Shown: positions 2,796 through 57,345, counted from the first letter of the stretch. The stretch: 64,000 nt of DNA from Candidatus Hydrogenedentales bacterium (GCA_041859045.1 JBHELB010000012.1:32798-96797), one strand, 5' to 3'. Notes: generated by a model from the sequence alone, not told the origin. A program made the numbers and translations.

Positions 2796-3538
2796 GCGAC
2801 CGCATGCGCCGCTACTACGCCGAACATCCGCACATGGTGAGTTCGCCGTTTGGCGGCATCGAGGGTTTTCACAGTGACCTCGTTGAAAAGGTGACGCGTC
2901 GTCTTGGCATCTCCTGGATGGGCCGCCGCGTGCTGGACGTGGGGTGCGGGCGCGGATTTCTGGGCGATATCGTGCGCGCGAACGGCGGCGAGTACGTGGG
3001 CGCCGATCTCGTGGCCAGCCGTGCGGGCGTGCGCATGGCCGTGGCGGATGCGCAGCGTTTGCCGTTTGCCGACGCCTCCTTCGATCTTGTGTGCTGTATC
3101 GACGCCTTCGAACACATACCTGCGCCGCATGCCGCCGTGCAAGAGTTTCGCCGGGTGCTACGGCCCGACGGCTCGGTGTTTTTGTCGGCCCCAAACTACG
3201 GAAACGTCGCGGGGCTAGTAAAGAAGTGGTGCGAGTCACGGGGCGGTTACGCGCGCGATTCCTGGGCTCCCTTCGGGCGGTGGAGCCCGCAAGAACTCGA
3301 ACACGCGCTGACCTTGCGCGGGGTGCGTCGGCTGTTTAGCGCGGCGGGCGCGCGCCGCATGCAGTGCATCGGCTATGGTGCGGAGGTTGAGTTAGGTCTG
3401 TTCCCATGGATTGCTCACCCGCGCTTTCCCGAGGCGCTGTTGTATCGCCTGCAACGCCTGTTTCGCGCCGTCGGGCCGGGAGTGGCGCGCGTCTGGCCGG
3501 GGGCGAGTCTGCACGGCTTTTGGCGTATAGACTTCTGA
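2792..3538 (+). CDS. class I SAM-dependent methyltransferase
   Basis: VLDVGCGRGFLG glycine-rich SAM motif. ATGA overlap with the GT2 stop. Conserved acidic residues follow. Confidence 0.8.
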   Translation: MSDRMRRYYAEHPHMVSSPFGGIEGFHSDLVEKVTRRLGISWMGRRVLDVGCGRGFLGDIVRANGGEYVGADLVASRAGVRMAVADAQRLPFADASFDLVCCIDAFEHIPAPHAAVQEFRRVLRPDGSVFLSAPNYGNVAGLVKKWCESRGGYARDSWAPFGRWSPQELEHALTLRGVRRLFSAAGARRMQCIGYGAEVELGLFPWIAHPRFPEALLYRLQRLFRAVGPGVARVWPGASLHGFWRIDF

Positions 3539-3630
3539 CGGGCGGAAGGCCTTCCGCGCCAGAGATGTTTCCACTGTGCAGGGCCGAATGGTATGCTGTT
3601 GCACCGCTGAGGGGCAAGGGAGACAACACG

Positions 3631-6600
3631 ATGAGCCAGCAGACATCGCTGGAGGCGTTATGGGAGCGGAAGGCGTATCGCCGGGGATTCTGGGCACTCC
3701 TGGCGACGCAATTTCAGGGGGCATTCAACGACAACGCCTTCAAGCAGACGATCATCTTGTCGCTACCGGTGCTGTTGACGGCGCAGCATTACCCGGAATC
3801 GTGGCAGGGCTACGTAACGGGCGTGTCCACGCTGCTGTTTAACCTGCCGTTTATCCTGCTGCCGGGGATTGCGGGGGCACTGGCGGATCGCTACAGCAAG
3901 CAGAGCGTGGCGTTGGCCACCAAGTATTTCGAAGTAGCTATCATGGTCTTTGGGGCTGTTGCGTTCTATATCGGAAATCCGTACGCGATATGGGCGATGC
4001 TGTTCCTTATGGGCCTGCAGAGCACGCTCTTTAGTCCCGCGAAGTACGGCATTTTGCCGGAGACCCTCCCAGAAGGCCGTTTGTCTTGGGGCAACGGCGT
4101 CCTCGCGACGCTCACTTTCGTGGCGATCATTCTGGGTACGGGCGCGGTGGGCCCGCTGCTCGATCTGGCGGGCGGGAACGTCTATCTCATCGCGCTGCCG
4201 CTCATCGTGCTGTCGATCCTAGGCACACTCTCCGCGCGCTGGATCACACACCCGCCCGCGGCCGCGCCGGATCGTCCCTTGCCGTTGAACCCCTGGGCGG
4301 ACATGGGGCAGTACGTGCGCCTGTTCCTGGCCGATCGTTGGCTGCTGCTTACGATGCTTGGCATTACCTACTTCTGGTTCTGCGGGCAACTCATGATGAT
4401 GAACATCATCGAATTTGCCAAAGGCATCTCGTCGAACAACACCGGCATCTCGATCATGCTCGCGTCGCTCACGCTCGGCATCGGCGGCGGCAGCATGGCC
4501 GCGGGATATCTGTCGCGCGGACGGATCGAGGTGGGCCTTATCCCGCTTGGCGCGTTGGGGCTGTCGTTCTTCAGCGCGGTATTGGGCCTGAACACGGTGG
4601 GGCTGTGGGGCGGCTCCGCGCTCCTGTTTGCATTGGGATTCTTTGGCGGCATCTACGATCTGCCGATGCAGGCGACGTTGCAGCAGCGGAGCCCGGACAG
4701 CGTCAAGGGCGGCATGATCGCCGCGAACAATTTCTTCAATTTCGTCGGCATGGGCCTGGCCGCAGGGCTATTCATTCTGTTGTTTGGCGTGCTGCACGTC
4801 TCGCCGCGAGTCATTTTCCTGCTTAGCGCCGTGCTCACGCTCGCCGTGGGCATTTACATCTGCTATTTGTTGCCGATGTTCCTGCTGCGCTTCATTCTGT
4901 GGGTACTGGGGAACACGTTCTACCGCCTGACCGTCGCGGGCGCGCACCACGTACCGCAGAAAAGCGGCGCGCTCATCGTCGCCAATCACACGTCTTTCAT
5001 CGACGCGCTCGCGGTCATCGCGTCACTCGATCGCCCCATGCGGTTTCTGATGGACCATGAGATCTACGACCTGCCTTGGGTGCGCCCACTGGCGAAAGCG
5101 ATGAACGCGATCCCTATTTCGCCAAAGGACAGCCCACGCGAGTTGATCACCGCGCTCAAAACCGCCGCGAGCGCCATCGAGAATGGCGAGTTGGTTTGCA
5201 TCTTTGCCGAGGGGCAGATCTCGCGCACCGGCCAGCTGCTGCCGTTCCGAAAAGGATTTGAGCGGATCATGAAGGGCCTCGACGCGCCCATCATTCCCGT
5301 GTACCTCGATCAACTCTGGGGCAGCGTATTCAGCTATTCCGGCAACAAATTCTTCTGGAAAGTCCCGCGCAGTATTCCGTATCGCGTGACGGTCGCCTAC
5401 GGCGCGCCGATGCCGGGCGACAGCACGCCGCAGGCCGTGCGCCAGGCGATGCAGGAACTCGGCACAGAGGCGTTCCTTCTGCGCAAGCATCGTCAGCCCA
5501 TGTTGCATCGTGCGTTCGTGCGCAGCGTCCGGCGTAGGCCGTTCGCGTTGTGCATGGCCGACATGACGATTCCCAAGCTCTCGTATTTCAAAACCTACGT
5601 TGGCGCGCTCGTGTTTGCGCGCAAACTGAATGCGCTGCTCGACGATCACTCTATGGTCGGCGTCTTGTTGCCGTCCACCGTCGGCGGCGCGCTCACCAAT
5701 ATCGCGCTCCAATTTATGGGCCGGACGGCGGTCAATCTCAATTACACCGCCGCGCCGGACGCCGTCGCCTCCGCCGCGCGGCAGTGCAACATTCGTCACG
5801 TAATCACGGCGCACGCGTTCCTCGAAAAGGTGCCGATGGACGTCCCCGGCGAAGCGATCTATCTCGAAGACATCCGCAAAACCGTGACCGGACTCGACCG
5901 TATCACCGCGATGCTCATGGCGGTGTTTCTGCCGGTGCGCGTGATCGAGCGGCGTCTCGGCGGCCCGCGCAAGCGCTCGGTGGATGACCTCGCGACGATC
6001 ATCTTCTCGAGCGGCAGCGAGGGCGAGCCGAAGGGCGTGATGCTGAGTCATTTCAACATCAGTTGCAACATCGAAGCGACGCTGCAGGTCTTTCCGCATG
6101 AGGCCGGATTCGGCATGACGGGCATTCTGCCGTTCTTCCATTCCTTCGGTTACTTGGGCGGACTGTGGCTGCCGCTGTTTGGCGGGTTCTTTACGGTGTA
6201 CTACCCAAATCCGCTCGACGCGAAGACTGTGGGTTCCTTGATCGGCCAGTACCACCCGCAGTTCCTTATCGCCACGCCGACGTTTCTTCAGAACTTCATC
6301 CGCCGTTGCCTGCCTGAAGAAATGAGTTCACTCATCTACGTCGTGACGGGCGCGGAAAAACTCTCGCCGCGCATCCGCGAGGCGTTTCGGGCGAAGTTCG
6401 GCATCGAGCCACTCGAAGGCTACGGCACAACGGAATGCGCCCCGGTGGTGTCGGTGAACGTGCCCGATTTCCGCGCACCGGGCTTCTACCAAGTCGGCAC
6501 GAAGCACGGCACCATTGGCCATCCGGTTCCGGGCGTGAGTGTGCGCGTGATCGACCCCGACACCGAGGAACCACTGCAGGACGGCACTCCGGGACTTTTG

Positions 6601-7071
6601 TTGGTCAAAGGGCCGAACATCATGCAGGGCTACTTGGGGCAACCGGAGAAGACGGCGAAGGTCTTGCGAAACGGGTGGTATTCGACGGGCGACATCGCGG
6701 CGATCGACGAAGACGGGTTCATCACGATCACGGACCGCTTGTCGCGCTTCAGCAAGATCGCGGGCGAGATGGTGCCGCACAACAAAATCGAGGAAACGTT
6801 CCACGAGATGCTCGGGCTTCAGGAGCAGTCCCTGGCGATCGTGGGCGTGCCCGACGAATCTCGCGGCGAACGCCTGGTCTGCCTGCACACGCTGAGCGAA
6901 GACCTGCTCGACAGCCTTCTCGCGCGCTTGGACACGTGCTCACTGCCGAAACTCTGGATTCCCAAGCCCAGCGCCTTCTACCGCATCGAAACGATTCCCG
7001 TCCTCGGCACGGGAAAGGTCGATCTGCGCGCGCTAAAGAAGATGGCGAACGAACTTGACCTTGGCGTATAG
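3631..7071 (+). CDS. aas: tri-domain fusion: MFS lysophospholipid transporter (LplT-like), PlsC-type acyltransferase and AMP-binding acyl-ACP synthetase (Aas-like)
   Basis: The N-terminal ~400 aa carry 12 hydrophobic helices (MFS). The middle has the acyltransferase HxxxxD motif (ANHTSFID) and FAEGQISRTG. The C-terminus has AMP-binding motifs (IIFSSGSEGEPKG, GYGTTE, WYSTGD). ATG 3631 is preceded by AAGGGAGA. Confidence 0.8.
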   Translation: MSQQTSLEALWERKAYRRGFWALLATQFQGAFNDNAFKQTIILSLPVLLTAQHYPESWQGYVTGVSTLLFNLPFILLPGIAGALADRYSKQSVALATKYFEVAIMVFGAVAFYIGNPYAIWAMLFLMGLQSTLFSPAKYGILPETLPEGRLSWGNGVLATLTFVAIILGTGAVGPLLDLAGGNVYLIALPLIVLSILGTLSARWITHPPAAAPDRPLPLNPWADMGQYVRLFLADRWLLLTMLGITYFWFCGQLMMMNIIEFAKGISSNNTGISIMLASLTLGIGGGSMAAGYLSRGRIEVGLIPLGALGLSFFSAVLGLNTVGLWGGSALLFALGFFGGIYDLPMQATLQQRSPDSVKGGMIAANNFFNFVGMGLAAGLFILLFGVLHVSPRVIFLLSAVLTLAVGIYICYLLPMFLLRFILWVLGNTFYRLTVAGAHHVPQKSGALIVANHTSFIDALAVIASLDRPMRFLMDHEIYDLPWVRPLAKAMNAIPISPKDSPRELITALKTAASAIENGELVCIFAEGQISRTGQLLPFRKGFERIMKGLDAPIIPVYLDQLWGSVFSYSGNKFFWKVPRSIPYRVTVAYGAPMPGDSTPQAVRQAMQELGTEAFLLRKHRQPMLHRAFVRSVRRRPFALCMADMTIPKLSYFKTYVGALVFARKLNALLDDHSMVGVLLPSTVGGALTNIALQFMGRTAVNLNYTAAPDAVASAARQCNIRHVITAHAFLEKVPMDVPGEAIYLEDIRKTVTGLDRITAMLMAVFLPVRVIERRLGGPRKRSVDDLATIIFSSGSEGEPKGVMLSHFNISCNIEATLQVFPHEAGFGMTGILPFFHSFGYLGGLWLPLFGGFFTVYYPNPLDAKTVGSLIGQYHPQFLIATPTFLQNFIRRCLPEEMSSLIYVVTGAEKLSPRIREAFRAKFGIEPLEGYGTTECAPVVSVNVPDFRAPGFYQVGTKHGTIGHPVPGVSVRVIDPDTEEPLQDGTPGLLLVKGPNIMQGYLGQPEKTAKVLRNGWYSTGDIAAIDEDGFITITDRLSRFSKIAGEMVPHNKIEETFHEMLGLQEQSLAIVGVPDESRGERLVCLHTLSEDLLDSLLARLDTCSLPKLWIPKPSAFYRIETIPVLGTGKVDLRALKKMANELDLGV

Positions 7072-23421: not shown

Positions 23422-24495
23422 CTACTTTCGTTCGAAGGTCACGATCCCCTGCCCCAACTGCACCATCGCGTCGGAAGAGAGAAACGCCGCGGCATCGCGG
23501 TTCTCTTTGAGGTATGCATCGAAAAACGCCGTGCTCGCCGCGAGCACGCAGGCGTAGATGTGTTCGGGGTCCGTGCCGATGGAGTTCAGCGCGAGTGTGC
23601 GCTTGAACAGGGCGCGCTCCACCCGCCCGCGCAACGGCCCCACGAAGGCTTCGGGATCGGACGCGCCCGGGCCGAGGTACGACAGGTGATGCGCGCCTTT
23701 AAGGTAGACCATGTATTTGTTCCCTGGTGGAGAGAAAAGATACGGTTCGAGCCGCCAGGTGCCCTCGAGCAACGGCCGGCCCGGATCGCGCGTGCCCGAC
23801 ATCACCATCAAGGGCAGGTCCATCTCTTTCCATGAGTCCTCTTCGAGTCCCCACTGATCGCGTCCTGGCCCTGACAACACCAGCGCCGCTTTGAAGCGCG
23901 GATCTCGCAGGCGTTGCGCGTCGCCGTTCGGGTACAGAATCGTGCCCGCCGCGAGCAATGCCGTATAGCCGCCGAACGAATGTCCCGCCACCGCGCATCG
24001 CTCAGGATCTATCTTGTCCGTGAGTTCGGGCAACGCATCGGCAATCGCGTCCAGCCCATCCAACACCGCGCTCAGATCGCGAACGCGATCGGCCCACGCG
24101 TCCGGCCCCAACTCATCCGCCCTCCGGAACTCCTCCACGGCGCGGCCGAGATCAAACGCGCCGCGCGGCGCACGATCCGCCAGGTGTGTGGGATGAATCA
24201 CGACGTAGCCGTGGCTGGCCCAATGAATCCCAAGCCCCGGGGCGTAGTCCTTCGAGCCGCCGACGCCATGAGAGAACACGATCACCGGAAACGGGCCCGG
24301 CGCGTCGGGATAGTAAATCTTCACCGGCACGGCACGCCCACGCTGCGGGTCGTCCACATCCCACTCGTTCACAATGCCGACTTCGTACAGCCCCAGCGCG
24401 CCGGAATACGTCGCGTCCGCGCGAGCCAGCGGACTTAACACTGCACAGAGCGCAAACGCTGCGAGCAAAACAGACAGGAAGTGTGACGGTCGCAT
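23422..24495 (-). CDS. secreted alpha/beta-hydrolase (PAF-acetylhydrolase / dienelactone-hydrolase-like esterase)
   Basis: Signal peptide MRPSHFLSVLLAAFALCAVLSPLARA. Nucleophile elbow GHSFGG. VIVFSHGVGGS block. Confidence 0.7.
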   Translation of the reverse strand: MRPSHFLSVLLAAFALCAVLSPLARADATYSGALGLYEVGIVNEWDVDDPQRGRAVPVKIYYPDAPGPFPVIVFSHGVGGSKDYAPGLGIHWASHGYVVIHPTHLADRAPRGAFDLGRAVEEFRRADELGPDAWADRVRDLSAVLDGLDAIADALPELTDKIDPERCAVAGHSFGGYTALLAAGTILYPNGDAQRLRDPRFKAALVLSGPGRDQWGLEEDSWKEMDLPLMVMSGTRDPGRPLLEGTWRLEPYLFSPPGNKYMVYLKGAHHLSYLGPGASDPEAFVGPLRGRVERALFKRTLALNSIGTDPEHIYACVLAASTAFFDAYLKENRDAAAFLSSDAMVQLGQGIVTFERK

Positions 24496-24663
24496 GGTGG
24501 AATTCCTTTTTACTACATGTAGCTATCATACCCCACGCGACGCGAAACGTTGCGCTCCTCGTCAAACTAAAAAAGAAAACTTTGGGAGACGAAAGTCTTC
24601 TCCTGCAACCGACGGAAATGCGCTGCTGAAGAACGAATATCCAAGTTATTGTGCTTCGAGGGG

Positions 24664-24692
24664 TTGACAAGCGCACAGTAGACCGGTACACT
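24664..24692 (+). promoter_or_regulatory. sigma70-like promoter (TTGACA-17-TACACT) for the small ORF and possibly znuABC
   Basis: TTGACA at 24664-24669, a 17-nt spacer, then TACACT at 24687-24692. It lies about 95 nt upstream of ATG 24789. Confidence 0.4.
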
Positions 24693-24699
24693 ATCATCA

Positions 24700-24717
24700 G
24701 CGTGCGAAGCCGCACGC
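24700..24717 (+). promoter_or_regulatory. perfect palindrome GCGTGCG-AAGC-CGCACGC just downstream of the -10 (candidate operator)
   Basis: 7-bp inverted repeat with a 4-nt spacer at about +8 to +25 relative to the putative -10. This position suits a repressor site, for example Zur-like regulation of znu. Confidence 0.3.
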
Positions 24718-24788
24718 GACTCGTCGGCCGTATCGGCGAGGCGGAAGTTTGGTAAAGTGGCAACACGTAACGAGAAGGGGAAGCTGAC

Positions 24789-24908
24789 ATGGAAAAGGGT
24801 TGGGACAACATCTTCGATCCGACTACGTGGGAATTCTGGGTAGCGTCGCTGTTCATTTGGTTCATCACCATCCCCGGCGCGATCCTGAAGTGGATCGGCG
24901 TCTTCTAA
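24789..24908 (+). CDS. 39-aa Trp-rich single-TM mini-protein (possible leader or small membrane protein) upstream of znuA
   Basis: MEKGWDNIFDPTTWEFWVASLFIWFITIPGAILKWIGVF. RBS GAGAAGGGGAAG before the ATG. It is below the 60-aa cutoff of the supplied track. It has its own promoter candidate and a terminator hairpin. Confidence 0.45.
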   Translation: MEKGWDNIFDPTTWEFWVASLFIWFITIPGAILKWIGVF

Positions 24909-24935
24909 ATCGGAAGACGAATTTCTGACGTTATT

Positions 24936-24976
24936 GGGACGCGGGATCGTAAGGTCCCGCGTCTCTGTTTTGTTGG
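24936..24976 (+). terminator. intrinsic terminator/attenuator between the mini-ORF and znuA
   Basis: 11-bp stem GGGACGCGGGA (24936-24946) / TCCCGCGTCTC (24955-24965) with an 8-nt loop, then TGTTTTGTTGG. Only about 40 nt remain before the znuA RBS. Confidence 0.5.
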
Positions 24977-25015
24977 AGAAGGCGGAAATATTCCTATTCC
25001 CCGGAGGACGGACCC

Positions 25016-25894
25016 ATGATCCGGTGCTGCGTCGTGGTGCTGTTGAGTCTCGTTGCGAGTTCGGCGTATGCCGAACTGCACGTTGTGGCGACGGTTCAGC
25101 CCTTGGCCGAGATCGTGCGCGGCGTCGCCGGAAACCGGGCCGCAGTGCAACGCATGTTGCCGCCGGGCGTCTCCCCACATACTTATTCCCCAAAGCCCAG
25201 CGACATGAAGGCCGTCGACGCCGCACAGGTAGTATTCTGGGTAGGCGCGGGGGTGGACGACTGGGCGGCCAAACTGCCGCATTCACGAAAAATTTCGCTT
25301 TTCGAATTACTTCCTCAATCGCTTCGCGTTCGCGGCGAAGCGCATCATGATCACGAGGAACATGGCGAGGAACCACATGAGGAAACCGCATGGGACGCCC
25401 ACTTCTGGATGGACCCTCAAGCGGTGAAAGCGGTGTTACCGGGGCTCGTCAAGGCATTGAGCGACCTTGATGCTGCCGGGCGCGGGGAATATGAGAGCAA
25501 CGCCGCCCGGTTCTCTGCGGAACTGGATGCGCTGGACGCCGAACTGGCGGCGCTCTTGTCTCCAATCAAAGGAAAGACGGTGGTCTCGTTTCACCCCTCG
25601 ATGCTCTACCTGATCAAGCGCTACGGACTCGTGGATGGCGGCAGTATTGAGCCGTTCCCCGGCAAGGAACCGACACCGCAATATCTCAAGGCGCTGCAGG
25701 AACGTCTGCGGAGCACAGGAACGAAGGCGATTTTCACCGAGCCGACGTTGCCGCCGGGGCCGGGGCGTGTGTTGGCGGAAGCCGCCGGGGTCAAACTGTC
25801 AGAACTGGACGGCATGGGCGGTCAGCCGGGCCGCGAGACCTTACGGGAGATTCTGCTCTACAATGCCCGGCAATTGGCTGAGGCGCTGCAATGA
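25016..25894 (+). CDS. znuA: zinc ABC transporter substrate-binding protein
   Basis: Signal peptide. ELHVVATVQPLAEIV block. His/acidic-rich loop GEAHHDHEEHGEEPHEE typical of ZnuA. RBS GGAGGA. Confidence 0.85.
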   Translation: MIRCCVVVLLSLVASSAYAELHVVATVQPLAEIVRGVAGNRAAVQRMLPPGVSPHTYSPKPSDMKAVDAAQVVFWVGAGVDDWAAKLPHSRKISLFELLPQSLRVRGEAHHDHEEHGEEPHEETAWDAHFWMDPQAVKAVLPGLVKALSDLDAAGRGEYESNAARFSAELDALDAELAALLSPIKGKTVVSFHPSMLYLIKRYGLVDGGSIEPFPGKEPTPQYLKALQERLRSTGTKAIFTEPTLPPGPGRVLAEAAGVKLSELDGMGGQPGRETLREILLYNARQLAEALQ

Positions 25895-26649
25895 ATCCCG
25901 CCGCTATCGAGACAGAAGGCCTGCGCGTCCGCGTCGGCGCCACGCTGGCGCTCGACGATCTGAACGTGTCTGTGCCGCCGGGAACGTTTACCGCAGTGAT
26001 TGGACCGAACGGCGCGGGAAAATCCACGTTGCTTCGAGCGCTGCTCGGTTTGCTGACGCCAGAGGCTGGGCGGATTCGGCTGTTTGGAGAGCCGCTCGCC
26101 CACGCGCCGGCGGAATGGCTGGGCTACGTTCCCCAATTCAAGACCCATGACCTCACCTTTCCTGCGCGCGCGGTGGATCTTGTGGTATCGGGACTGCGGC
26201 GGAGCTGGCCGTGGCGTGCATCTCGTGGCGAGCGCGCAAAGGCGGAGGCCGCACTCGCACGGGCGGGCGCAGGACACCTGGCGGACCGATTGCTTCCTGG
26301 CCTATCGGGCGGCGAGCTGCAACGCGTCCATCTGGCGCGGGCGCTGGTGCGTCAGCCACGACTGGTGTTACTCGACGAGCCCAACGCGGGCATGGACGCC
26401 AGCGCGGAAGCGGACATGTACCATGTACTCGAGGCGTATCCCGCGCAAACCGGCGCAACGGTGGTCATGGTGACGCACGACTGGGAAGGCGCGCGGTACC
26501 ACGCCAGCCACGTGCTGTTGCTGCACCGTCAACTCATCGCGTTTGGTCCACCGGCCGACGTGCTCGAGGAGCGGCGGCTGAGTCAGGCCTTCGGCCATGC
26601 GCTGCCGGGACATGCCGCGCTTCCCCCAGGAGGGCACCCCAATGCTTGA
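25891..26649 (+). CDS. znuC: zinc ABC transporter ATP-binding protein
   Basis: Walker A GPNGAGKST, LSGGELQRVHLARAL and Walker B LVLLDEP. ATGA overlap with znuA. Confidence 0.85.
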   Translation: MNPAAIETEGLRVRVGATLALDDLNVSVPPGTFTAVIGPNGAGKSTLLRALLGLLTPEAGRIRLFGEPLAHAPAEWLGYVPQFKTHDLTFPARAVDLVVSGLRRSWPWRASRGERAKAEAALARAGAGHLADRLLPGLSGGELQRVHLARALVRQPRLVLLDEPNAGMDASAEADMYHVLEAYPAQTGATVVMVTHDWEGARYHASHVLLLHRQLIAFGPPADVLEERRLSQAFGHALPGHAALPPGGHPNA

Positions 26650-27445
26650 GGTCATGAGCCTACCCTTCATGCAGCGCGCGCTGGTCGCGGGGTTATTGGT
26701 GGGGGGCTTGGCGGGGTTCTACGGTGTCTTCGTCACGCAGCGTGGGTTGAGCTTCATGGGCGACGGCCTTGCGCACGCCGCGTTTGGCGGCGCGGCGCTG
26801 GGGATACTCCTTGGCGTGGCGCCGTTGTGGGTGGCGGCGGCGTGGGCAATGGTGACGGCCCTGGCGATCGTCTGGGTGCAACATCAGGGGCGTCTGCGCG
26901 GCGACGCGGCCATTGGCATATTCTTTGCCGTGTCGATGTCGCTCGGCGTCGTGTTTTTGTCGAAGACCGAGTCGTTCACCGGCGATGCGTTCAACTACCT
27001 GTTCGGTTCGATCCTGTTTGTGACGTGGAGCGACGTGGCGGTGGGTGCCGTGTTACTGGCAGTGTCCTTGCTTCTGCTGCCGTTGTGGGGGCGCTGGGCC
27101 TATGCCACGTTCGACCGCGAACTTGCGCAGGCCGATCGGCTCAATGTCAATCGTTTGGACTACGTGCTCGCCCTCTGTGTTGCGGCGACGGTCGTCGTAT
27201 CCGTGAAAATCGCCGGCATTGTGTTGGTATCGGCGTTCCTGATCATTCCCCCGGCGACGGCCCGGTTCTTGGCGCGGTCTTTCTCGGGTATGACGCTATG
27301 GTCTGTTGGCCTTGGTATGGCCAGCGCCGCCCTGGGGCTTTGGTTTTCCTATGCCCAGGACTTGCCGACGGGCCCCGCGATGGTGCTGGTGCAAGCGGCG
27401 GCGTTTGTCTGCGCGCTGACATTTAGCCAATTTCGAAAACCTTGA
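26643..27445 (+). CDS. znuB: zinc ABC transporter permease
   Basis: About 267 aa with 8-9 TM helices. Its start overlaps the znuC 3' end. It is the third gene of the znu-type operon. Confidence 0.85.
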
Positions 27446-38807: not shown

Positions 38808-38909
38808 ACACGTTTTGAATCATGCCCAGGAGTAGTCTGCTGTGGCCCCAAAACAAAGACCCAGGGAGAACCCTCTTGGGCGTCTCCCTGGGTCTAGATC
38901 GTGGTTTGT

Positions 38910-39878
38910 TTATCCTTGCCAACGAGTACGGGCGCAACCCGCCGCGCCGATCACTCCGGCGTCGCCGCCGAGTTCGGCCAGCACGATCTGCGCGCGCTTG
39001 GCGGGTACCTCGAAACACTGCCTCGCCACCGTCTCGCGCAACGGCTCCAGCAGCAACGCGCCCGCCGCCGTCATGCCGCCGTACAGCACAATCTTCTCTG
39101 GATTCAGCAAGTTGATCAGACTCGCAATACCGCAGCCGAGATAACGCCCCGTCTCCGCGAGCACCCATTTCGCGAATTCATCGCCCTGGGTCGCCGCTTC
39201 GGAGATCATCTTGCCCGTGAGCTTGCTTGTGTCCCCTGCGCACGCCGTTGTCAGCGTCGTCGCGCGTCCCGCCTCGATCCCCTCGACGGCCGTGCGCACC
39301 ATGCCCGTCACGCTACCATAGGCCTCGAGGCACCCTCGCGCGCCACAACCGCACAAACGGCCATCGCGCACAATGCACAAATGCCCGGTTTCGGCCGCAG
39401 TGCCGTCAATGCCGCGCATGAGCTTGCCAAACACAATAAGGCCGCCGCCCACGCCCGTGCCGAGCGTCAGCATGCAGACCGTCTCCGCGCCGCGCGCCGC
39501 ACCCGACCAGAACTCGCCGTAGCAAGCGACGTTGGCGTCGTTCTCTACAAACACGGGAAATCCCATACGATGCGTCATCAGTTCGGCCAGCGGCACGTGG
39601 TGCCAACCGGGCAGATTGGGCGGCGTGTAGACAACACCGGTCTGCCAGTTCATCGGCCCCGGCGCGCCAATCGCCCCGGCGCACACGTCGGCGCGTGTCA
39701 TGCCCGCCTGGCTGAGCGCGCTGTCAATCGACGCCTCCATGGCGGCCATCACGGCCTCCGGCCCGCCCGGCGCGTTGGTTTCGCGCGAGTCACGCGAAAT
39801 AAGTTTTCCCTCTGCCGTCACCACCGCGCTACGCGCGTTGGTACCGCCCAAGTCCACGCCGATAAACACCTGACTCAC
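38910..39878 (-). CDS. glk: ROK-family glucokinase
   Basis: GVDLGGTNARSAVV ATP-binding start. ROK zinc motif CGCGARGCLEAYGS. The stop overlaps the gltX region. Confidence 0.8.
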   Translation of the reverse strand: MSQVFIGVDLGGTNARSAVVTAEGKLISRDSRETNAPGGPEAVMAAMEASIDSALSQAGMTRADVCAGAIGAPGPMNWQTGVVYTPPNLPGWHHVPLAELMTHRMGFPVFVENDANVACYGEFWSGAARGAETVCMLTLGTGVGGGLIVFGKLMRGIDGTAAETGHLCIVRDGRLCGCGARGCLEAYGSVTGMVRTAVEGIEAGRATTLTTACAGDTSKLTGKMISEAATQGDEFAKWVLAETGRYLGCGIASLINLLNPEKIVLYGGMTAAGALLLEPLRETVARQCFEVPAKRAQIVLAELGGDAGVIGAAGCARTRWQG

Positions 39879-41356
39879 GCCTTGACCTCCTGTACTGACT
39901 GAATAACTTCGGCGGCGCGTTCAAGACGCGCCAGACATTCCTCGCGCCCCAACAACTCGGCCAACTCGAACAACCCCGGGCCCACGCTCTTCCCCGTCAG
40001 CGCCAAGCGCGTGGGATGTACGTAATGCCCGAGCGAACCGCCAGACATCGCCACCAAATTTTCGAACGCGGCCTTGAGCGTGTCATGGGTCCACTCGGAG
40101 ACCGAATCGACCGCCGTACGGATAGCCTGCATGCGGGCAGGCGCCTCGGCGTTCTTCCAATGCTTATTGACCGCCTTCTCCTCATATTCCTGCGGCGTGG
40201 AGAAGAAGAAGTCCGTGTAACCGACAATGTCGGCGAGGGTCGAAATCTTCTCCTGGCAGATCGCGGCCATTTTCGTCAGCCATTCCGGCGATTTCGTCGA
40301 AGTATCCAACCCGGCGCGCTGCATGAACGGAATAACCCGGTCGCGCAGCTCTTCCGGAGACAATCGGCGCAGGTGCTGGCCGTTCAGCCACTGGAGTTTC
40401 TTCAAGTCGAACTTCGCGGCCGACTGCCCCAGACGGTCCAACGTGAACGCTTCGACCAGCTCGTCCCGAGTAAACAGCTCACGGCCTTCCTCGGCGGGCG
40501 TCCAGCCAAGCAACACCACGTAGTTGATCAGCGCCTCCGGCAGATAGCCGTCTTCGCGCCAATCGAGCACGTTCGCGCCACGCATACGCTTGCTGTACTT
40601 TCGGCCTTGCTCGTCGAGCACCAGCGGCAAGTGCGCGAACTGCGGCAGCGGATACCCAAGCGCCTGGAACAACAACACGTGCCGCGCCGCGTTCGTCAGG
40701 TGGTCGTCGCCGCGAATCACGTGCGTGATCTGCATCAACCCGTCGTCCACCACCACGGCGAGATGGAAAATCGGATCGCCGTTTGATTTCGCGATGATGA
40801 AGTCGTCTATCTCGCGGTTGTCGATGCGCACAACGCCGCGCACAAGATCGTTGATCTCGGTCACGCCCTCGGGTACCCGAAACCGAATCGCGTACGGCGC
40901 GTCGCCCATTGCGGCGATTTTCTCCGGCGACGCATCGCGCCAAGTACCGTCGTAACGGGGCGGACGTTTCTCCGCCGCGGCGCGCTCGCGCATGGCTTCG
41001 ATCTCTTCCGGCGTGCAGAAGCACTTATACGCCTTCCCCTCGGCAAGCAGGCGTTGGGCCTCGCGCACGTGCAAGTCGCGCCGCTGGGATTGACGGTACG
41101 GACCAAGTGCGCCTTTCTCCGGCTGGCCGCCGAATTCAGGGCCTTCATCCCAGTCGATGCCGAGCCACTGAAACCCGTCGCACATCGCGTCGGCGAATTC
41201 CTCGCTGCTGCGCTCGGCGTCGGTGTCTTCGAGCCGCAGAATGAACACGCCGCCGGTCTTGCGTGCGTAGAGCCAGTTGAACAACGCCATCTTGGCCGTA
41301 CCGATATGCAGAAAACCCGTCGGCGATGGCGCAATACGAACCCGGACCGTACTCAT
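39875..41356 (-). CDS. gltX: glutamate--tRNA ligase
   Basis: VRVRIAPSPTGFLHIGTAKMALFNW is the HIGH-region block. KYSKRM-like KMSKS region. The start is trimmed to MSTVRVR; the six-frame ORF starts 26 codons earlier. Confidence 0.9.
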   Translation of the reverse strand: MSTVRVRIAPSPTGFLHIGTAKMALFNWLYARKTGGVFILRLEDTDAERSSEEFADAMCDGFQWLGIDWDEGPEFGGQPEKGALGPYRQSQRRDLHVREAQRLLAEGKAYKCFCTPEEIEAMRERAAAEKRPPRYDGTWRDASPEKIAAMGDAPYAIRFRVPEGVTEINDLVRGVVRIDNREIDDFIIAKSNGDPIFHLAVVVDDGLMQITHVIRGDDHLTNAARHVLLFQALGYPLPQFAHLPLVLDEQGRKYSKRMRGANVLDWREDGYLPEALINYVVLLGWTPAEEGRELFTRDELVEAFTLDRLGQSAAKFDLKKLQWLNGQHLRRLSPEELRDRVIPFMQRAGLDTSTKSPEWLTKMAAICQEKISTLADIVGYTDFFFSTPQEYEEKAVNKHWKNAEAPARMQAIRTAVDSVSEWTHDTLKAAFENLVAMSGGSLGHYVHPTRLALTGKSVGPGLFELAELLGREECLARLERAAEVIQSVQEVKA

Positions 41357-41455
41357 GATGCCTCCCTTATAGCTGGTTCTCCGGACGGAGAAACAAGGGC
41401 ATACGGTACACGAAACGGGCTGTGCAATGCACATTGAAGCGCCGCGCCGTCGGTC

Positions 41456-56461: not shown

Positions 56462-56514
56462 AACAATCGGGGAGTCTCCTCTTGGAGAAGACTCCCCGAT
56501 TGTTATTTTTTCTT
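56462..56514. terminator. strong bidirectional intrinsic terminator between the convergent HK and flavodoxin genes
   Basis: About 16-bp perfect stem AACAATCGGGGAGTCT / AGACTCCCCGATTGTT with further pairing inside. Followed by TATTTTTTCTT on the + strand and preceded by an A/T-rich run (a U-tract on the - strand). Confidence 0.7.
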
Positions 56515-56575: not shown

Positions 56576-57085
56576 CTAGAGGCCGAGTTCCTGCTTGAGC
56601 TGTGTCGACCAACGCGCGACGCGGTCCTCGGTCAAGTCACGCTGCCGATCCATGTCGATCGGAAGTCCGACGAACTTGCCGTCGATAACCGCCGTCGTGC
56701 CTTTGTAGGTGTAGCCCTCGTCCGGCCACATGCCCACGACGCGCGCGCCTTTCTCGAGTACCTTGTCGTAGATCGTTCGCATGGCGTTCTGGAACGACTC
56801 GCCATAACCGACCTGATCGCCCAGCCCGAACAAGGCCACGGTCTTTCCGGTCAGATCCACGTCGTCCAGTTCCCAGATGAAATCCGCCCAGTGCTCTTGC
56901 AGTGCGCCCAAGCCATAGGTTGAAGTGCCTAGAATCAGCACGTCGTATTCCTCAAGCGATTCCGGCGAAGCTTCTTCAACATCCACCAGCGCCACGCGAT
57001 CCTCGCCCAACTGGGCCTGAATCATCTGCGCAACCTTCTTGGTATTGCCATACGTGCTGCCGAAAAACAGTCCAATCCGACTCAT
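56576..57085 (-). CDS. fldA: long-chain flavodoxin
   Basis: MSRIGLFFGSTYGNTKKVAQ FMN phosphate-binding loop. 169 aa. Start trimmed to MSRIG; the six-frame ORF starts 26 codons earlier. Confidence 0.85.
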   Translation of the reverse strand: MSRIGLFFGSTYGNTKKVAQMIQAQLGEDRVALVDVEEASPESLEEYDVLILGTSTYGLGALQEHWADFIWELDDVDLTGKTVALFGLGDQVGYGESFQNAMRTIYDKVLEKGARVVGMWPDEGYTYKGTTAVIDGKFVGLPIDMDRQRDLTEDRVARWSTQLKQELGL

Positions 57086-57345
57086 GGTGTTCACTACTCC
57101 TCTGTCTTTGAAAAAGCAGCCGCGCCGTGCGCGATCCGCCATAACGGGGCAGCCTCCCCACACAAAAAACGAGCCCTATTATCGTAAAAACGCCGGGCTG
57201 TTTTCCACTTCGGTTTGTCAGCGGACAGCCGGTTTAGCCCCATTACGGCCCGTATGACGTAAGGCGATTCCCGATAGCCTCAAAGGAAAAAGACTGAACC
57301 CTCGTTTTTCAAAGAATTGCTAGGAAAATACAGATATAACGCGGT

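Follow-up and report, generated by a model that had tools for sequence, protein, structure and literature searches.

A putative gene for a Trp-rich single-pass membrane protein, with promoter and terminator, upstream of a znuABC-type operon in Candidatus Hydrogenedentota

In the rplL-rpoB region of Escherichia coli, a partial terminator acts as a constitutive internal attenuator and sets the ratios at which the genes are expressed. At the other end of transcripts, 5'-terminal stem-loops with a stabilizing role are represented by ompA-type examples and by examples from Bacillus. Small membrane proteins that bind transporters form a known class (PMC12648545), and type I toxins constitute a further described class of small membrane peptides (PMC12648545). 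A search of the literature for leader or small-protein control of znuABC found no case. The locus analyzed here comprises a sigma70-type promoter, a palindrome, a Shine-Dalgarno (SD) sequence, a 39-codon open reading frame (ORF) and an intrinsic terminator, a combination that exceeds chance, placed directly upstream of genes for a Znu-type importer.

The locus lies within a 64,000-nt stretch of DNA (the window) whose source is a member of Candidatus Hydrogenedentota; the best foreign matches of its glutamyl-tRNA synthetase, GltX, are 78% and 74% identical, the 74% match being one named Hydrogenedentales. The GC content of the window is 61%, and its long genes have GC fractions of 0.66, 0.46 and 0.73 at first, second and third codon positions, respectively. 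The 39-codon ORF (hereafter the mini-gene, when taken together with its signals) adjoins znuABC on the same strand, 107 nt upstream of znuA. The features of the region are as follows.

24664-24692, plus strand: sigma70-type promoter, with -35 motif TTGACA at 24664-24669, a 17-nt spacer and -10 motif TACACT at 24687-24692 (consensus scan).
24700-24717, plus strand: perfect 7-4-7 palindrome GCGTGCG-AAGC-CGCACGC (read from the sequence; predicted folding energy -13.2 kcal/mol).
24720-24740, plus strand: second hairpin of the 5' untranslated region (UTR), 8 bp including two G-U pairs (fold).
24775-24780, plus strand: Shine-Dalgarno sequence AAGGGG, 8 nt before the ATG (read from the sequence).
24789-24908, plus strand: 39-codon ORF, stop codon included in the coordinates, for a putative Trp-rich single-pass membrane protein (ORF listing, codon score, AlphaFold2).
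24899-24919, plus strand: hairpin in whose loop the UAA stop codon lies, -10.4 kcal/mol (fold).
24936-24974, plus strand: intrinsic terminator, with a 13-bp stem at 24936-24965, a GUAA loop and the tail TGTTTTGTT (hairpin scan, fold).
24984-24994, plus strand: AT-rich mini-palindrome GGAA-ATA-TTCC (read from the sequence; single copy in the window, chance level).
25003-25008, plus strand: Shine-Dalgarno sequence GGAGGA of znuA, whose ATG is at 25016 (read from the sequence).
25016-25894, plus strand: znuA, encoding a periplasmic metal-binding protein that has a signal peptide and a loop rich in His and acidic residues, HHDHEEHGEEPHEE (Pfam ZnuA, E = 1e-62).
25891-26649, plus strand: znuC, ABC ATPase (Pfam).
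26642-27445, plus strand: znuB, ABC-3 permease (Pfam; the gene caller places the start at 26642, the longest ORF starts at 26597).

The three genes 3' of the mini-gene match the ZnuA, ABC_tran and ABC-3 families of Pfam. Among NCBIfam models, the ZnuA product matched those of MntC, ZnuA and AztC, all under their cut-offs; since it falls between the three models, zinc is the likely, rather than the proven, substrate of the importer. Comparison of the window with L033, a Logan contig from the same organism, revealed three substitutions (25585, 25618 and 25678), all at third codon positions of znuA, while the mini-gene and the intergenic region were identical between the window and same-organism contigs. 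With three SNPs only, all in znuA, variation between strains is too low to estimate selection. The neighborhood of gltX (38900-41434 of the window) was also compared with those of L043 and L045, the closest available Hydrogenedentota relatives. Gene order was kept for the adjacent ROK-family gene only, and no znu locus was found near gltX in either relative; thus, synteny could not be used for finding the orthologous intergenic region. Elsewhere in the window, a 1221-aa ORF on the plus strand (3406-7071) fuses a major facilitator superfamily (MFS) transporter with acyltransferase and AMP-binding (acyl-ACP synthetase-like) domains, that is, a lysophospholipid recycling fusion of the Aas/LplT type. 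A near-palindrome, GCGAAACGTTGCGC, at 24541-24554, stands about 45 nt upstream of a divergent alpha/beta-hydrolase gene (23422-24495, minus strand) and may serve that gene as an operator or as an element of its 5' UTR.

The sigma70-like promoter that the original prediction had assigned to the mini-gene, TTGACA-17-TACACT, is the sole such match between positions 24300 and 25300. In a scan with the sigma70 consensus, promoter rules for Hydrogenedentota not being established, it also stood alone in reaching 10/12 within 60 kb; the remaining matches scored 9/12 and their number was that expected from shuffled sequence. We infer a transcription start at about 24699. The palindrome, likewise foreseen at the likely start site, begins 8 nt after the -10 motif, which corresponds to predicted position +1/+2, and has no second copy in the window. 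On average, the window contains one perfect stem of 7 bp or more per 1641 nt, which gives a probability of about 0.004 for one to start within a given 7-nt interval. Most likely, and most simply, the palindrome is a stabilizing stem-loop at the 5' terminus: a stem at the first transcribed bases resembles the ompA-type and Bacillus stem-loops, and a stabilizing role would be in line with the other signals of the unit, the best promoter and a strong terminator. Alternatively, the palindrome is possibly an operator. In the closest relative, a near-palindrome rich in GC stands upstream of znuA; its supposed likeness to this element failed an alignment test.

The predicted transcript has a structured 5' UTR of about 90 nt, measures about 275 nt from promoter to terminator and is more structured than shuffled sequences (folding z = -3.2). 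Within 376 nt (24700-25076) there is a cluster of four perfect stems, each of 7 bp or more with a loop of 3-8 nt, where 0.23 would be expected (Poisson p ~1e-4); they start at 24700, 24899, 24940 and 25058. The stem at 25058, AGTTCGGC-GTAT-GCCGAACT, lies inside the signal-peptide codons of znuA.

The ORF itself, with its good ribosome binding site, 39 codons and five Trp, was found as predicted. Its product, MEKGWDNIFDPTTWEFWVASLFIWFITIPGAILKWIGVF, has Trp at 5 of 39 residues, versus 1.6% in the products of the window's genes (binomial p = 3.6e-4), and the Trp codons are dispersed (codons 5, 14, 17, 24 and 35). GC fractions at the three codon positions are 0.38, 0.40 and 0.80, and this third-position bias is absent from the two other frames. 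The codon log-odds score, 0.463 per codon, is the best among the 321 ORFs of 30-60 aa in the window and reaches the 83rd percentile of 40-codon chunks from real genes; it is partly due to a Phe/Ile-rich composition and so amounts to strong, not conclusive, evidence of coding. Four independent Logan assemblies from this organism also have the ORF called as a gene by gene callers, and the identical 39-aa protein is on record from an NCBI genome. With this strong coding signature, the ORF looks like a genuine small-protein gene. The G-run of its SD pairs with CCCC at 24872-24875 with a probability of 0.98. Nothing was drawn from this pairing, as 37% of controls with shuffled ORFs were equally closed. 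A His-rich (HLVHHHP) 42-aa ORF read in an alternative frame from a TTG codon (24800-24928, plus strand) was set aside as not coding, having a GC3 of 0.40 and no usable SD.

The single-sequence AlphaFold2 model of the peptide consists of two helices, at residues 2-8 and 11-35 (mean pLDDT 87.5). Trp 14, 17, 24 and 35 fall within an 80-degree arc, on one face of the long helix. The N-terminal 16 residues bear a net charge of -3 and the last ten a net charge of +1; by the positive-inside rule, these terminal charges suggest an N-out, C-in topology, with the short acidic N-terminal helix turned outward. The predicted single-transmembrane small protein agrees with both the coding signature and the helical model, and the product would belong to the known class of small single-helix membrane proteins.

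A hairpin of 11 bp followed by a U-tract had been proposed downstream of the ORF. Both hairpin and tract are there, but the stem counts 13 bp, including two G-U pairs. The structure is GNRA-capped, has a predicted energy of -26.2 kcal/mol and precedes a stretch of 9 nt of which 7 are U. Within 60 kb, only two hairpins, this one included, combine a stem of 13 bp or more with a T-tail, and strong intrinsic terminators seem to be rare in the source genome. The other one (56462-56504, minus strand) has a 20-bp stem followed by CTGTTCTTT and stands 3' of a minus-strand ORF (56576-57163).

Relatives of the peptide were sought at several levels. A word-indexed search of 5.8 billion protein clusters, with the 39-residue query extended by one codon, and an exhaustive phmmer search of 1.84 billion protein representatives returned the query only; as a 39-residue query cannot detect relatives of less than about 60% identity in such databases, the term orphan means here that no close relative was found. 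Two DNA-level scans of JGI metagenome contigs, one run with the peptide as a self-alignment and the other with the degenerate pattern FIWFITIPG, gave no relative; the single match to the pattern lies inside a helicase gene and was attributed to chance. The peptide had no match in Pfam, NCBIfam or PDB sequences, even with E up to 10, and no paralogue was found, the gene being in single copy. Rfam 15, applied to the whole window at gathering thresholds and to 24450-25100 at E up to 10, gave nothing real, two snoRNA matches (E = 2.6 and 9.7) being ascribed to chance. The original prediction had suggested looking for the peptide upstream of znu operons in relatives, and this yielded none: tblastn gave no match in about 35 related znu loci, no hydrophobic or transmembrane small ORF was found upstream of znuA in 30 relatives, and local alignment of related znuA upstream regions with the intergenic region of the window gave no similarity beyond shuffles. 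The closest ZnuA (L036) is 53% identical, and the 204-bp spacer upstream of its gene does not contain the mini-gene. By these searches, the mini-gene is a lineage-specific orphan, for which the lack of relatives precludes a test of purifying selection.

The relatives were informative in another respect. In six of them (L002, L005, L027, L038, L041 and L042), a TTGACA promoter and a Fur/Zur-type box, GAKAA-N3/4-TTATC, are found directly upstream of znuA. These elements lie about 40-120 nt before the znuA match in L002, L005 and L027, at positions 540-580 of L038, at about positions 285-320 of L041 and at about positions 155-190 of L042. In L038, where TTGATAATATTTATCAA exemplifies the box, a gene of the FUR family overlaps or abuts the start of znuA. 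These data bear out the view that Zur control is the norm for such operons. A search for GAKAA-N4-TTMTC near 24500-25015, allowing up to one mismatch, gave no match, and tblastn with the FUR protein of L038 and with E. coli Zur detected no Fur-family gene in the window. Judging from its sequence, the znu locus of the mini-gene departs from the Zur-box norm.

How znuABC is transcribed was considered next to these findings. From the end of the terminator hairpin (24965) to the SD of znuA (25003) there are 37 nt, close to the 40 nt or so that had been thought to leave no room for a separate promoter, and a scan with the sigma70 consensus, promoter rules for the phylum not being established, showed no candidate in this interval even at 7/12. 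The only plus-strand candidate, CTGACG-19-TAAGGT, lies inside the hairpin and is at background density. No element other than the mini-palindrome GGAA-ATA-TTCC presented itself as a candidate operator or weak -10 region close to znuA, and znuA could have an unrecognized promoter, for example around the AT-rich GGAAATATTCC. In the absence of a recognizable znuA promoter, partial read-through of the terminator is the simplest route to znuABC expression, and a plausible one. Against it, termination at a hairpin of -26 kcal/mol with 7 U in 9 nt may be too efficient to supply an operon with transcripts.

The main idea of the original prediction was an attenuator or leader with regulated read-through into znuABC, a co-regulated small membrane protein being its second option. 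In a leader-peptide attenuator, translation of the 39 codons would control termination at the hairpin. The succession of a short SD-led ORF, an intrinsic terminator and an operon without a separate promoter agrees with such a leader, as does the fact that the locus is devoid of the Fur-type box found in relatives. However, the defining feature of an attenuator is a competing, ribosome-dependent antiterminator, and folding of the transcript from 24699 revealed no pairing that competes with the terminator stem. Pair probabilities within the terminator are 0.9996-1.0; a fold with the 3' arm unpaired is less stable by 21.9 kcal/mol, and the best one in which the 5' arm is made to pair upstream lies about 15 kcal/mol above the minimum. 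Furthermore, the stop codon ends at 24908 and the stem begins at 24936, a 27-nt gap across which a terminating ribosome cannot reach the terminator stem; only the stop-codon hairpin could be opened. The Trp codons are distributed as in a membrane helix and do not relate logically to an operon that imports metal, and the ORF, hydrophobic and with a gene-like codon score, resembles that of a functional protein. Finally, no leader was found upstream of orthologous znu operons in about 35 relatives, of which the closest has a ZnuA just 53% identical. Leader-peptide attenuation thus appears very unlikely, although antitermination dependent on a factor is possible. The main rival to read-through is a different one, namely that the two units are unrelated neighbors, the terminator being efficient and znuABC having an unrecognized promoter of its own, possibly zinc-regulated and maybe through the AT-rich palindrome at 24984-24994. 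The strength of the terminator speaks for it, and so do the position of that palindrome, just before the znuA SD in a genome of 61% GC, and the upstream region of the closest relative's znuA, which also has no obvious consensus promoter or box. On the other hand, the 37 nt available contain no candidate even at 7/12, a start after AATATT would leave some 4 nt before the SD, and the palindrome is at chance level. On balance we regard this arrangement as unlikely.

Other explanations concern the product of the mini-gene. Like KdpF, MgtS, MgtR or AcrZ with their transporters, it might serve the ZnuBC importer as an accessory subunit or regulator, with one promoter serving the whole locus and the terminator setting the stoichiometry. 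Its location on the same strand 107 nt upstream of znuA, where a shared promoter is likely, the single transmembrane helix, whose Trp stripe along one side would lend itself to helix packing, and the precedent of small membrane proteins that bind transporters (PMC12648545) are all in keeping with this idea. We nonetheless consider it rather improbable, since adjacency in one genome is weak evidence, a strong terminator separates the gene from znuA, no co-occurrence with Znu transporters was observed in any relative examined and both zinc and ABC transporters go unmentioned in a 2025 review of small membrane proteins. Doubtful to a greater degree is an extension of this idea, by which the lineage would have replaced Zur-box control: the Trp-rich protein, co-transcribed with the importer, would act on ZnuBC as a subunit or regulator, and the terminator, perhaps together with a factor binding the palindrome or hairpin, would tune the amount of transporter. 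If the ORF were accidental, the transcript could be a small RNA without coding function or a regulatory RNA 5' of znuABC. This would account for the discrete promoter-to-terminator unit of about 275 nt, its folding z of -3.2 and the lack of protein homologues; yet coding is favored by a GC3 of 0.80 specific to this frame, by the highest codon score and by the well-spaced SD, chance would hardly produce five Trp together with a clean hydrophobic helix of 25 residues, and no Rfam family was matched even at E up to 10, all of which makes such an RNA hard to credit. Least credible is a type I toxin-like gene, that is, a hydrophobic membrane peptide made from a structured mRNA under antisense RNA control. 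The peptide has fewer than 60 aa and one transmembrane helix, and its transcript is rich in hairpins, with a structured UTR of about 90 nt and a paired SD. However, this pairing is no stronger than in the shuffled-ORF controls, the gene is in single copy with no paralogue, and a near-consensus, constitutive-looking promoter would be odd for a toxin. Besides, a consensus scan of the minus strand showed no promoter or terminator apart from a single site inside znuA, which has a 19-nt spacer and, at 8/12, is at chance level.

We give somewhat better than even credence to the reading in which the mini-gene is genuine and restricted to its lineage, encodes a single-pass membrane protein of 39 residues and forms an autonomous and highly expressed unit, and znuABC is expressed by constitutive partial read-through. 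According to this scheme, the near-consensus sigma70 promoter would fire at about 24699 and produce an mRNA starting with the perfect 7-bp stem-loop, which most likely protects the 5' end. The well-spaced SD would then drive translation of the 39-codon ORF, and the GNRA-capped terminator would end the transcript after about 275 nt. A minority of polymerases would pass the terminator and generate znuABC mRNA. Presumably, constitutive partial termination would set a high ratio of small protein to transporter, with no ribosome-sensed attenuation involved.

If this reading is right, the locus adds another small membrane protein without a family, from a candidate phylum with almost no experimental biology, and it illustrates how genes of less than 60 aa escape length cut-offs in spite of clear expression signals. 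It also flags a zinc-uptake operon that does not have the Fur-type operator of its relatives. Should Zur-box control truly have been replaced as outlined above, this would be the first instance of small-protein or terminator-based control of a Znu-type zinc importer. The importance of the locus depends on a link between the peptide or the terminator and zinc import being demonstrated, and its practical value is modest. Promoter, 5' hairpin, ORF and terminator make up a testable cassette.

The mini-gene can be compared with several known systems. Like the type I toxins Hok, TisB, Ibs and AapA1, it is predicted to specify a small hydrophobic single-helix peptide from a long structured mRNA; unlike them, it shows no antisense signals, occurs in single copy, has a strong, constitutive-looking promoter and carries an acidic rather than a basic terminus. 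The operon downstream is of the same type as Zur-repressed znuABC operons (ZnuA, ABC ATPase, ABC-3 permease), but no Fur-type box is found near either promoter region and no Fur-family gene in the window. The trp, his and pyrBI attenuators share with the mini-gene a short SD-led ORF and a hairpin with a U-tract before the structural genes, to which Trp codons may be added. In contrast to these leaders, the mini-gene has no antiterminator or pause hairpins and its stop codon is too far from the terminator; its Trp codons are dispersed and unrelated to the substrate, and its peptide is predicted to form a hydrophobic membrane helix.

KdpF of kdpFABC, MgtS, MgtR and AcrZ, which bind transporters, offer a comparison for the protein. 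These measure 29-49 aa, compared with 39 here, and have one transmembrane helix; location directly before a transporter operon, in the same orientation, is another point in common. There is no sequence relationship, however, and the transporter partner of the mini-gene product is putative, with no co-occurrence with Znu in other genomes and no such partner of ZnuABC known. Moreover, kdpF is translationally contiguous with kdpA, whereas the mini-gene is parted from znuA by a strong terminator. For the organization of the transcription unit, a parallel is E. coli rplL-rpoB. Partial termination has been shown experimentally in that system, whereas here it is deduced from sequence and the upstream gene is a 39-codon orphan. 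What the two have in common is the order of a strong promoter, an intrinsic terminator and downstream genes without a strong promoter of their own, an arrangement yielding a high/low expression ratio with no sensing leader.
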